Shown here in pieces: positions 40,067 through 46,018 of a stretch of DNA of 64,000 nucleotides; position 1 is the stretch's first letter, and each line of letters begins with the position of its first letter. The translations under genes were made by a program, and so were the position numbers. The notes beneath the pieces were generated by a model. It saw only the letters and a list, made by a program, of their open reading frames with translations, made no database searches and was not told where the DNA came from. The stretch lies in the NCBI RefSeq assembly GCF_011045215.1, contig NZ_CP049202.1. One strand, 5' to 3'. The stretch is from Escherichia coli. Lineage in GTDB: Bacteria > Pseudomonadota > Gammaproteobacteria > Enterobacterales > Enterobacteriaceae.

Positions 40067-40620
40067 TTTTCAGCCCCCATCATCTTTTGAGTTTCGGGAG
40101 CCGCGGTTTTGACGTTTTGCGGGGACCTGCCTTTTGTTCCCTCCGGTATTCACCATCATCTTTTTGAGAACCTTCGCCGCAAGGGGCATCACTGCCACGG
40201 CCGGAAACGACTGTCCGGGGGCAGACCGCAAAAGTTTTTGCCTGCTTCTGGGCAAAAACTTTTGCGGGATGTGCATTTCACCCCTGGACTGGCGGAGACG
40301 GTTGTGGCTGTATCAGCCCCCGGCGACAGGGGATTAAACAGGTGAATGGCACCGGACAGAACAACGGGCAGGGACCCGCCGCAGCGACGTGAAGCGCGGT
40401 TTGCGAAACGGCGTTGCCCCTTACATCCCGGCGGCCTTTTGCCGGGATGCCGGGAGCGCAGGCCACGGCGCGACAGAGGCGGCGCGACCGGAACGGTCGC
40501 TGCAAGCCCGGGGTTTCGCGTCAGGGATGGAAGCCCGCCAGGGCGGAGACAGCTTCGCTGGCTCCGTTCACGACAGCCCGCCCCGCCAGGGGGACGCCCG
40601 GAAAAGGCATAAGCAGGAGA
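40067..40620. repeat. Direct repeat copy A (~554 bp), GC-rich structured non-coding element
   Basis: Near-identical to 45462-46018. Spurious ORF peptides from the two copies differ by single residues. Confidence 0.9.
40121..40377 (-). promoter_or_regulatory. Frpo/ssi-like long imperfect hairpin in the T-strand (candidate ssDNA promoter, minus-sense output)
   Basis: Perfect 16-bp apical stem 40227-40242/40251-40266. The arms stay partly complementary for ~120 nt (ggtgaataccgga vs ggtgaatggcaccgga; gaacaaaaggcaggtcccc vs gaacaacgggcagggaccc). Confidence 0.6.
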
Positions 40621-40915
40621 ACAACAAAACAGACAATAATCAGGGCAGCAGTAATCAGAGTCAGAACAGGAGGAAAAAGAGAATAATCAAAGGGAAGGTG
40701 ATGTGATTTCTGACAGGTCATAAACAGAGAAGGCGGGGGAAAAGAACGGGCGCCGCAGGCGCACGTTCATCCCCGTTCCCGGAGGGAAACGGCCTTCCTG
40801 GCAGTCTGGTTGTTCATGCCCGTACAATGCCAGCAAGGAGAAAGGGGCCACCGGCGAACCAGCAGCCCCTTTATAAAGGCGCTTCAGTGCAGTCAGACCA
40901 GCATCAGCCCTGAAA

Positions 40916-40935
40916 AGGCGGGCCTGCGCCCGCCT
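40916..40935 (-). terminator. Hairpin plus U-run just 3' of hok
   Basis: aggcgggc-ctgc-gcccgcct with a flanking A4 on the + strand (U-run in minus sense). Confidence 0.5.
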
Positions 40936-40943
40936 CCAGGTTG

Positions 40944-41102
40944 CTACTTACCGGATTCGTAAGCCATGAAAGCCGCCACCTCCCTGTATCCGTCTCTGTA
41001 ACGAATCTCGCACAGCGATTTTCGTGTCAGATAAGTGAATATCAACAGTGTGAGACACACGATCAACACACACCAGACAAGAGAGCTGCGTGGTAGTTTC
41101 AT
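40944..41102 (-). CDS. hok: Hok membrane toxin, 52 aa
   Basis: [52 protein letters not shown] matches Hok as recalled. Confidence 0.95.
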
Positions 41103-41160
41103 GGCCTTCTTCTCCTTGCGCAAAGCGCGGTAAGAGGCTATCCTGATGTTGTCTAAGCAT
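40948..41160 (-). CDS. mok: Mok (modulator of killing) overlapping reading frame, 70 aa
   Basis: 70-aa ORF overlapping hok in another frame, as in hok/sok loci. Confidence 0.75.
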
Positions 41161-41206
41161 GCAGGGGCCTCGTGGGTTAATGAAAAATTAACTACGGGGC
41201 TTTTGT
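41148..41206 (+). ncRNA. sok: Sok antisense RNA (approximate)
   Basis: Promoter TTGCGC-17 nt-TATCCT at 41116-41144. Antisense to the mok start. Hairpin then TTTT at 41201-41204. Confidence 0.5.
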
Positions 41207-44540: not shown

Positions 44541-44603
44541 ATATTTCTCCTTTGACCGGGATGGTTGTATGTCTGCCGGACGCGTTCCCGTCCGGCACCT
44601 CTC

Positions 44604-44837
44604 TTACTTAAGAATGCCGAAATCACGGATGGCATGGTTCATCCAGTACCCGGCACCGTCCTCAAAATTCCAGGTACGCCAGACCATTGCACCGTTATTA
44701 CGGACAACCAGGCGAAACTGTTCGCCGTGGTCATCCTCGATAAAGACGTTCCGGTACTGTGCGGCAACGGCTTCGGCATGTTTGCGGGTAAAAGGACCGT
44801 CAGGCAGCCCCTGAAGTATTCTGAAATATTCGCTCAT
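44604..44837 (-). CDS. Hypothetical small protein, 77 aa
   Basis: ATG at 44837 with SD GGAGAAATGAGG. Lies between ssb and the parB-like gene. Confidence 0.55.
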
Positions 44838-44899
44838 CCTCATTTCTCCGGTGATGCCCCGCACAGGACGGGGCGGGGCGGTTATCACAGTCAGCCCGA

Positions 44900-45439
44900 T
44901 CAGAACGGGATATCGTCTGAAAACCCGTAATCGTCACCCTCCGGCGGTTGCGGCAGAGGCTCCGGCTGCGCGGCCTTACGTCCACGGCCTTTCGTTTTTG
45001 CGCCTCCTTTTTTCGTACCGGCCTCCGCCTGTGGTTCCGGCTGAGGCTGACCGCTGAACTGTTGCGCCTCTTCCGGCTGAGTCTGAGCACCTGCGGCACG
45101 TCCCAGCATCTGCATGGTGCCCGTGGTCTTAACAAGAATTTCGGTGACGTAACGGGTGATACCGTTATCCTCCCAGCTACGGGTGCGAAGCTGACCTTCG
45201 ATGTAGACCTGCGCGCCCTTGCGCAGATATTCACCTGCCACTTCCGCGAGCTTGCCGAACAGCACCACGCGATGCCATTCTGTCTGCTCCCGCATCTCCC
45301 CCGTCTGTTTGTCACGCCAGCTTTCTGACGTGGCCACCTGCAGGTTTGCCACTGCGCCCCCGTTGGGGGTGTAACGGACTTCCGGATCTTTTCCCAGGCG
45401 TCCTACGAGAATGACCTTGTTAATGCCACGAACTGCCAT
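44900..45439 (-). CDS. ssb: Plasmid single-stranded DNA-binding protein, 179 aa
   Basis: [48 protein letters not shown]...DDIPF: OB fold plus acidic tip. Confidence 0.95.
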
Positions 45440-45461
45440 GATGTGTCTCCTTCTGTTGATG

Positions 45462-46018
45462 TTTTCAGCCCCCATCATCTTTTGAGTTTCAGGAGCCGCG
45501 GTTTGACGTTTTGCGGGGACCTGCCTTTTGTTCCCTCCGGTATTCACCATCACCTTTTTGAGAACCTTCGCCGCAAGGGGCATCACTGCCACGGCCGGAA
45601 ACGACTGTCCGGGGGCAGACCGCAAAAGTTTTTGCCTGCTTCTGGGCAAAAACTTTTGCGGGATGTGCATTTCACCCCTGGACTGGCGGAGACGGTTGTG
45701 GCTGTATCAGCCCCCGGCGACAGGGGATTAAACAGGTGAATGGCACCGGACAGAACAACGGGCAGGGCCCCGCCGCAACGACGGAGAGCGCGTGCGCGAA
45801 ACGGCGTTGCCCCTTACATCCCGGCGGCCTTTTGTCGGGATGCCGGGAGCGCAGGCCACGGCGCGACAGAGGCGGCGCGACCGGAACGGTCGCTGCAAGC
45901 CAGGGTTTCGCGTCAGGGATAGAAGCCCGCCAGGGCGGAGACAGCTCCGCTGGCTCCGTTCACGACAGCCCGCCCCGCCCCGCCAGGGGGACGCCCGGAA
46001 AAGCCATAAACAGGAGAG
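45462..46018. repeat. Direct repeat copy B (~557 bp) immediately upstream of ssb
   Basis: Near-identical to 40067-40620. Confidence 0.9.
45515..45770 (-). promoter_or_regulatory. Frpo/ssi-like long hairpin, copy B (candidate ssDNA promoter for ssb-psiB-psiA)
   Basis: Apical perfect stem 45621-45636/45645-45660. The arms are as in copy A. Confidence 0.6.

Follow-up and report, generated by a model that had tools for sequence, protein, structure and literature searches.

Two leading-region direct repeats of an F-like Escherichia coli plasmid as probable orthologues of the single-stranded DNA promoters Frpo1 and Frpo2

The two repeats and their counterparts in F

The 64,000-nt stretch of Escherichia coli DNA analysed here (contig NZ_CP049202.1 of assembly GCF_011045215.1; hereafter the window) comes from an F-like (IncF, MOBF) plasmid, of which it covers the transfer and leading region, and this report concerns two long, GC-rich direct repeats within it, copy A and copy B (Table 1). 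Read leftwards from copy B, the interval between them carries ssb, a DUF905 gene (yfjA of F), a ParB-like gene (yfjB of F), psiB, psiA and a hok/sok locus, and to the left of copy A come a truncated ygeA and a DUF932 gene (ygeB of F); from the DUF932 gene through ssb, every gene is on the minus strand. The nic sequence of F, GTGGGGTGTGGTGC, which we take to be the nick sequence of TraI, is matched exactly and only once, on the plus strand between traM and the SLT gene. Given the known behaviour of F TraI, the plus strand is therefore the transferred strand, as the original prediction for this DNA had held, and everything to the right of the nick is the leading region, in which copies A and B begin 2.1 kb and 7.5 kb downstream. 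Since the nick is on the plus strand and the genes downstream are on the minus strand, the transferred strand is their template.

The copies are in direct orientation, 5392-5397 nt (5.39 kb) from start to start, and about 96-97% identical overall, with ungapped blocks at 96-98% and a BLAST identity of 95.9% over 560 nt; the coordinates given in the original prediction were right to within a few bases. It had also called them GC-rich and non-coding, and this stands: their GC contents are 62.5% (A) and 63.0% (B) against 50.3% for the window, and the one 68-codon open reading frame (ORF) in question is broken in F and in most other homologues. Sibling plasmids match the window at 100% across the repeat. 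Each copy lies, as predicted, just upstream of a gene, with the left end of copy A 20 nt from the ATG at 40045 and that of copy B 21 nt from the ssb ATG (45439), and in each plasmid examined the left end of the repeat adjoins the ribosome-binding site of the operon. The small gene expected to precede DUF932 after copy A is there as well, and proved to be a frameshifted remnant of ygeA: a run of eight A in F has seven here, and this 1-nt deletion brings a stop after 30 codons. This may be either a genuine loss or a homopolymer sequencing error. In the F plasmid, deletion of ygeA drops conjugation to about 4% (PMC9849209).

We conclude, with a probability of about 0.93, that the repeats are the class-1 single-stranded DNA (ssDNA) promoters Frpo1 (also named ssiD or ssp1a) and Frpo2 (ssp1b), active on ssDNA by homology to those of F. 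Against the F single-strand initiation (ssi) site ssiD (D90178; sequence from PMC11541004, supplement 4), window positions 40074-40423 are 95.2% identical over 352 nt and positions 45469-45816 are 93.2% identical. When the copies were aligned with both corresponding regions of F (NC_002483), copy A matched the Frpo1 region at 95.9% over 561 nt, both unique flanks of copy A proved to be those of F Frpo1 and both of copy B those of F Frpo2, and the gene order agreed, with ygeA and ygeB after A, and ssb, yfjA, yfjB, psiB, psiA and hok/sok after B. Copy A and F Frpo1 (95-96% identical) thus share flanks, downstream genes, strand relative to oriT and a long hairpin with an A/T-rich palindromic cap; they differ in a few cap substitutions, in the loop that faces a candidate -10 box (TATCAG here, TCTTTG in F) and in the frameshift of the downstream ygeA. 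Copy B and F Frpo2 share the left flank, which holds the ssb ribosome-binding site, a GAA-rich right flank and the operon ssb-yfjA-yfjB-psiB-psiA-flm, whereas over the hairpin (351-nt alignment) copy B is 94.8% identical to F Frpo1 and 85.3% to F Frpo2. The two copies of F are 92% identical to each other (PMC9849209), or 86% when measured over the hairpin alignment, and so less alike than the two copies here. Of the features of the class, homology, leading-region location, orientation and a stable transferred-strand stem-loop of about the expected size (~330 nt) were found.

Close relatives of the repeats occur in at least 5000 plasmid records, mostly of conjugative plasmids of Escherichia, Klebsiella, Salmonella and Shigella, usually in 2-3 copies and up to 8. 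One sibling plasmid (NZ_CP061340.1), identical to the window across copy A, has a third Frpo copy, 90% identical (17672-18214 of our extract L001), upstream of a DUF3560 and SAM-methyltransferase module. The module is absent from the window, and is another case of modules added at Frpo copies.

Much of what may be expected of the two repeats is known from their F orthologues through the work of others, and by analogy ssDNA-dependent transcription, early expression that needs the elements, and priming would apply here too. Couturier et al. 2023 named F Frpo1 and Frpo2, 92% identical and about 5 kb apart, and found that fusions to leading genes stay under the detection threshold in donors and go off after conversion to double-stranded DNA (dsDNA), while plasmids deleted for Frpo1 or Frpo2 gave no significant rise in fluorescence of ygeA, ssb and yfjA fusions in transconjugants (PMC9849209). 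Samuel et al. 2024 put the number of Frpo homologues at about 13,000, spread over about 6,000 conjugative elements, and saw considerably weaker performance when Frpo was moved to the lagging region or to the complementary strand (PMC11541004). Wen et al. 2025 grouped Frpo and ssi1-3 as class-1 ssDNA promoters, described classes 2 and 3, and reported early transconjugants to be enriched in transcripts of Frpo-controlled genes (PMC12672017). A 2026 preprint, which uses the names ssp1a and ssp1b, gives in vivo evidence for transcription-dependent priming of the complementary strand (10.64898/2026.01.09.698686). The hairpin-promoter reading put forward for this locus is thus supported by homology together with published experiments on F (PMC9849209, PMC11541004).

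A conserved hairpin on the transferred strand

The original prediction proposed an imperfect plus-strand hairpin of ~255 nt in each copy, capped by a perfect 16-bp stem, and it would have been given up had no stable fold been found. We found the hairpin in both copies, but it spans roughly 320 nt and its perfect cap stem, CCGCAAAAGTTTTTGCC / GGCAAAAACTTTTGCGG, has 17 bp and closes an 8-nt loop. Folded with DNA parameters, the plus strand of copy A reaches -158.5 kcal/mol (z score -8.26; 0 of 100 shuffles as good) and that of copy B -150.9 kcal/mol (z -6.75). In a sliding fold of 300-nt plus-strand segments over all 64 kb, the copies came out as the two most stable segments (-92.9 and -92.5 kcal/mol for A and B, against a window mean of -40 +/- 12). 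When the -75 kcal/mol criterion of Wen et al. (PMC12672017) was applied to these segments only four passed, namely the two copies, 47351-47650 and 49951-50250, and the four sit where the four-promoter layout of F predicts (PMC12672017; preprint 10.64898/2026.01.09.698686).

To this we can add comparative support from 14 class-1 homologues, 65-100% identical, taken from the window, F, the third copy of the sibling plasmid, a Klebsiella plasmid, a Salmonella plasmid, pVE155, Serratia and an insect-gut element. Their consensus fold regains the long hairpin with 88 pairs and 96.6% of cells paired, figures that are inflated by counting pairs on the very alignment that yielded the structure; alignments slid out of register gave 41-50% paired. 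Compensatory changes occur in 13 consensus pairs, and the covariation score was reached by 0 of 500 shuffles. The fold is also asymmetric between strands, the transferred strand folding more stably than its complement, by 5.6-17.1 kcal/mol, in each of the 19 homologues folded, and G-T cells outnumbering A-C cells in the hairpin pairs by 91 to 12. As the mRNA is identical in sequence to the complementary strand, each G-T pair of the transferred strand turns into a C-A mismatch there. The compensation, the strand asymmetry and the G-T excess fit selection on the fold of the transferred DNA strand and not on a fold of the mRNA. Identity, synteny, strand, a stable conserved hairpin and non-coding status are established in the window.

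An internal direct repeat was also noticed in the 5' arm, with one unit, TCATCTTTTGAG, at the base of the hairpin and the other, TCATCTTTTTGAG, at the candidate -35 box (40080-40091 and 40155-40167 in A; 45475-45486 and 45549-45561 in B). The units covary across homologues (TCACCCGTTGAG with TCACCCGTTTGAG), and either could pair with a single segment of the 3' arm (CTCAAACGGGTGA), a hint of an alternative pairing or of a second binding site.

Each repeat has a second part. The hairpin module is followed by a right-hand module of 216 nt and 70% GC (40410-40625 in A, 45806-46022 in B) which lies outside the published ssiD, so that the repeat unit, at about 560 nt, exceeds the ~330-350 nt published for Frpo/ssiD. 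The second set of smaller hairpins predicted here is present at about 40424-40449 (CATCCCGGC...GCCGGGATG), but the right-hand part overall is just marginally more structured than its shuffles (z -2.1); its small hairpins are partly common to IncI, Salmonella and insect-gut elements. Directly to the right of each repeat the plus strand carries a purine-rich tract (40612-40700 and 46024-46080), that beside copy B being a GAA/GAG run whose length differs in F. The tracts would yield a sense RNA rich in C/U and poor in G, similar to a Rho-loading site closing the upstream operon, and the small hydrophobic ORFs that cross the tracts into the repeats (e.g. 45960-46097 and 40521-40721, minus strand) look spurious.

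Promoter boxes, proposed mechanism and rival explanations

On the mechanism that we favour for Frpo1 and Frpo2, the plus strand would enter the recipient 5' to 3' from the nick at 37922/37923 during conjugation, each repeat would snap into its ~320-nt hairpin, whose stem would mimic duplex promoter DNA, and host sigma-70 RNA polymerase would bind the hairpin and transcribe the transferred strand leftwards before a complementary strand exists. Copy A would in this way serve the ygeA remnant and DUF932, and copy B ssb, yfjA, yfjB, psiB, psiA and the hok/sok region. The promoter may read up the 5' arm, with the polymerase copying the 3' arm as far as the loop and returning down the 5' arm. Synthesis of the complementary strand would flatten the hairpins and switch the promoters off, and the transcripts may also prime that synthesis. 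As a by-product the direct repeats would feed homologous recombination, by which the copies are homogenised and the ssb-psi-hok module is deleted or duplicated.

Candidate boxes were sought in the fold and in the alignment of 14 homologues. In the best conserved pair, on the 5' arm, the candidate -35 is TTGAGA (40164-40169), found unchanged in 14 of 14; its TTGA is paired to the 3' arm, or TTGAG where the partner is CTCAAAC. A largely paired spacer of 17 nt separates it from the candidate -10, CATCAC (40187-40192), which falls in an internal loop and is unpaired in all homologues, facing a loop strand that varies (TATCAG, TCTTTG, TCTATG), and the predicted start, at about 40199-40200, coincides with invariant G-T wobble pairs. 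The truncated Frpo2 placed upstream of acrIIA4 by Samuel et al. (PMC11541004) ends where the partner of the candidate -35 ends, an endpoint consistent with boxes in the 5' arm. To the TTGAGA/CATCAC assignment itself we would give about even odds. Masai and Arai, who reportedly renamed ssiD as Frpo in 1997, are said to have described -35 and -10 boxes formed in the stem, with mismatches required at the -10. Three other pairs were considered and rejected. TTGACG (40109-40114)-17-TTTTGT has an invariant -35, but its -10 falls in the stretch of the 5' arm that varies most, and its pairing partner is absent from the Frpo2 construct of Samuel et al. upstream of acrIIA4. TGGACT/TATCAG in the 3' arm has a spacing of 20-23 nt, and its TATCAG is TCTTTG in the tested F Frpo1; TTGTTC-17-CATCTT is not conserved.

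Several points weigh against the identification of the repeats as working Frpo promoters. The original prediction had called for a -35/-10 pair in the stem, and a linear sigma-70 scan (consensus and weight matrix) of both strands of the repeats gave no canonical pair above shuffled sequence; the best linear score, 6.2, equals the shuffle median, the TTGAGA-17-CATCAC candidate scores 3.4, and CATCAC agrees with the -10 consensus at three of its six positions. The complementary strand also folds well (z -6.4), as that of any inverted repeat must. The pairing figures carry the inflation noted above, and the homologues are mosaics of a few modules related by recombination, hence not independent of one another. 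The first gene of the copy A operon is frameshifted, so the operon may be partly decaying, unless the missing A is a homopolymer error. Function in this plasmid would follow from the 93-96% identity to tested F elements.

Four other explanations were weighed against this. That the repeats are mainly ssi signals which prime complementary-strand synthesis, gene expression being incidental, draws on the history of the F element, first isolated as the ssi site ssiD (PMC11541004, supplement 4), on the persistence of Frpo RNA as an RNA-DNA hybrid that DNA polymerase III uses in vitro (PMC7690428), and on a rifampicin-sensitive early conversion downstream of ssp1a and ssp1b in vivo (10.64898/2026.01.09.698686). 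However, complementary-strand synthesis goes on in rifampicin according to the same 2026 preprint, the left ends of the repeats abut the ribosome-binding sites of operons, as a promoter would rather than a free-standing primer site, and the two roles are not mutually exclusive, so that we consider priming as the main function improbable. Nor would we expect, by analogy with F, membership among the PriA-dependent primosome sites (phiX174-type ssi), because ssiD/Frpo is described as RNA-polymerase-dependent (PMC7690428); the likeness to Frpo in the original prediction is borne out by identity and synteny, and its analogy to primosome sites is a loose one, since RNA polymerase is described as the primer-maker and the site is probably not of the PriA type. 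A conventional duplex promoter or a structured 5' leader, acting in dsDNA or RNA with the DNA hairpin irrelevant, is very improbable. The 5' untranslated region would include most of the element, and the hairpin would recur in the transcript, and copy A does contain a weak minus-strand match, TTGCGG-16-GATGAT; but no minus-strand sigma-70 match rises above chance, and the highest-scoring is conserved neither in copy B nor in F. No Rfam family matches the repeats, as expected of a DNA element, while the G-T excess over A-C and the greater stability of the transferred strand in every homologue, together with F fusions that are undetected in donors and turn off upon conversion to dsDNA (PMC9849209), speak for the transferred DNA strand.

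The remaining two explanations deny the repeats any regulatory role. If they were scars of recombination or boundaries of a mobile cassette, with the ssb-psi-hok module inserted between them by recombination, one could readily understand the plasmids that lack the module and have a single hybrid copy (at least 87 records), those in which it is duplicated or stands alone as a 5.4-kb record, and the equivalent case in IncI (PMC3817090). A scar, however, would not preserve a compensated 320-nt hairpin across Escherichia, Klebsiella, Salmonella, Serratia and an insect-gut element, nor would it lie always 20-22 nt upstream of a start codon in a single orientation, and no terminal inverted repeats, target duplications or recombinase gene were found within the unit or at its ends. 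Recombination is better seen as a consequence of repeated promoters, and the scar explanation is scarcely credible. A transposon or an element like a miniature inverted-repeat transposable element was rejected as well, the repeats being direct and the genes inside being ssb, DUF905, ParB-like, psiB, psiA and hok/sok. Finally, RefSeq annotates a 68-aa 'hypothetical protein' in sibling plasmids (minus strand, corresponding to 40070-40276), and the frame is open in copy A; yet in F Frpo1, in F Frpo2 and in most other homologues stops or frameshifts break it, in copy B it shifts and runs into ssb, it has no Pfam match, and the substitutions track base-pairing and not codon position, which leaves a coding function next to impossible.

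Table 1. Coordinates of the repeats, their substructures and neighbouring features in the window
Feature	Position	Strand	Basis and remarks
Copy A	40066-40625	+	Repeat search, MAFFT, BLAST; orthologue of F Frpo1 / ssiD / ssp1a
Copy B	45461-46022	+	Repeat search, MAFFT; orthologue of F Frpo2 / ssp1b by flanks
Long imperfect hairpin, copy A, ~320 nt	40091-40409	+	Pair list of the minimum free energy fold
Cap stem, copy A	40226-40242/40251-40267	+	
Cap stem, copy B	45620-45636/45645-45661	+	
Candidate promoter core, 5' arm	40164-40192	+	Candidate boxes from fold and 14-homologue alignment
FinP and traJ leader	~37002-37110		
traM	37199-37582	-	Nick sequence lies between traM and SLT/orf169
oriT nick sequence, GTGGGGTGT/GGTGC (slash, nick)	37914-37927	+	Exact match to F nic, single occurrence
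SLT/orf169 gene	37921-38523	+	
ssiE (D90180) match	38518-38706		98% to F ssiE; second single-strand initiation site
DUF932 gene (ygeB of F)	38942-39721	-	Pfam DUF932, E 1.9e-50; second gene of copy A operon
ygeA remainder	39759-39899	-	Separate 46-aa ORF
Truncated ygeA, 30 codons	39953-40045	-	F ygeA alignment; first gene downstream of copy A
hok/sok (flm) addiction locus	40944-41271	-	Rfam sok 41100-41271, 92.6 bits; last element between repeats
psiA	41377-42096	-	Pfam PsiA, E 5e-38
psiB	42093-42530	-	Pfam PsiB, E 8e-64
ParB-like gene (yfjB of F)	42582-44540	-	Pfam ParB_N and HTH_ParB
DUF905 gene (yfjA of F)	44604-44888	-	
Plasmid ssb	44900-45439	-	Pfam SSB, E 3.8e-38; first gene downstream of copy B
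Class-2 ssDNA promoter (ssp2/'Frpo3')	47365-47699	+	Arms 47372-47403 / 47578-47609
Expected class-3 ssDNA promoter (ssp3)	~49951-50250	+	Hairpin fold upstream of methylase gene

Recombination between the copies and related elements

We scored copy B at the 121 positions that separate F Frpo1 from Frpo2 and found it to be a mosaic: its left flank is Frpo2-type (17 of 17 positions), 45597-45761 is mostly Frpo1-type, and from 45767 on it is Frpo2-type again. Judged from this pattern, the hairpin core at 45597-45761 is a gene-conversion tract between the copies, and its conversion accounts for the copies being closer to each other here than the two of F are. The pair in p44-2, a Klebsiella plasmid, shows 100% identity over the aligned 351-nt hairpin segment, and homogenisation of Frpo copies seems common.

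The original prediction also regarded the pair as a potential deletion or amplification unit, and both junctions that this implies occur in public plasmids. A synthetic query made of the ygeA flank, one repeat and the right flank of copy B was found contiguous in at least 87 plasmid records; in one of them, pDW54_1, DUF932, ygeA and a single repeat are followed by DUF1380 and antirestriction genes, with the ssb-psi-hok module gone. The reciprocal junction (ssb, repeat, hok) is present in 5 records. pSCU-125-3 (NZ_CP051703.1; 5,391 bp) contains the ssb-yfjA-yfjB-psiB-psiA-hok module and one Frpo copy and nothing else, in a circularly permuted order, and pCAU16175_3 has two modules in tandem. 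In another record, NZ_OZ040492.1 (6,769 bp), the ssb-repeat-hok junction is split by an IS110-family element; this record and pSCU-125-3 may represent circles excised by recombination or artefacts of assembly. The pair thus acts as a deletion/duplication unit, as had been anticipated in print: Couturier et al. flagged the Frpo pair as a substrate for homologous recombination and pointed out that the intervening flm (hok/sok) would safeguard the segment (PMC9849209), and Venturini et al. 2013 described an IncI plasmid that lost a 9.7-kb leading module between Frpo repeats (PMC3817090). A sibling plasmid carries an annotated Hok toxin.

We also considered that the 216-nt right-hand module might be a functional element of the transferred strand in its own right, with the repeats as portable borders where entire leading-region operons can be lost, duplicated or cut out as circles. 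This is a doubtful proposition; if it were true, the module might slow complementary-strand synthesis or exclude SSB, and so keep the promoter hairpin single-stranded for longer.

Comparable repeats are found on other plasmids. Dispersed leading-region repeats of ~330 nt upstream of ssb, psiB and ardA make up the ssi1-ssi3 set of ColIb-P9/IncI1, reportedly the work of Bates et al. 1999 and Nasim et al. 2004. The IncI1 ssi can be aligned with the present repeats in the apical hairpin (74-81% over about 80-115 nt) and in a downstream motif (93% over 29 nt), and their transferred strand is likewise the more stable; they differ in a lower stem that BLAST does not align, in the plasmid backbone and in having three copies. 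The single-strand origins (sso) of rolling-circle plasmids are strand-specific and orientation-specific elements. They too are folded ssDNA on which host RNA polymerase makes a primer, but they are unrelated in sequence and serve replication alone, driving no operons, in vegetative replication and not in conjugative entry; the comparison with Frpo has been drawn before (PMC7690428).

Within the window itself, the other two plus-strand segments that passed the stability criterion belong to the class-2 element and to the expected class-3 element (Table 1). The class-2 hairpin lies upstream of an ArdB/KlcA-like antirestriction gene (46910-47335) and is 83% identical to the 'Frpo' 4' candidate of Samuel et al. 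(PMC11541004); its best box candidate, TTGCAT-15-TAAGAT, is in the 3' arm and reads towards the base of the hairpin, whereas the boxes of the two repeats would be in the 5' arm and read towards the loop. At -86.5 kcal/mol (z -7.3 for 49921-50300), the segment 49951-50250 ranks third in the window for 300-nt fold stability, and it lies directly upstream of a DNA methylase gene (49237-49920, minus strand). Both elements resemble the repeats in being long transferred-strand hairpins upstream of minus-strand operons, with a proposed promoter activity on ssDNA only, and differ in having no sequence similarity to them. It is ssp2, and not Frpo, that the 2026 preprint reports as a replication roadblock. 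The alignment to F ssiD and ssiE that had been suggested as a check also placed the ssiE match apart from the repeats, in the interval that separates the SLT and DUF932 genes. To the right of ssiE, and short of the end of DUF932, there is, moreover, a perfect 27-bp palindrome with a 1-nt gap (ATGATAATATAAGTAAAGCCCCGAAAA / TTTTCGGGGCTTTACTTATATTATCAT, 38768-38822), which may be a bidirectional terminator.

Thus, the observation on which the original prediction was built is real and was correctly interpreted, and it is already known, which makes it a matter of annotation rather than of discovery. The hairpin conservation, the strand asymmetry, the conversion of copy B and the finding of both recombination products in public records are the details that are new here, and the value they add, as comparative support for the hairpin and for exchange between the copies, is modest. 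In practice, the region can now be labelled with Frpo1, Frpo2, the class-2 and class-3 promoters and ssiE in place of spurious 'hypothetical protein' ORFs. Promoters of the Frpo type explain how SOS-inhibition, SSB and anti-defence genes are expressed in the first minutes after transfer, before the plasmid is double-stranded, and are for this reason relevant to the spread of antibiotic resistance.

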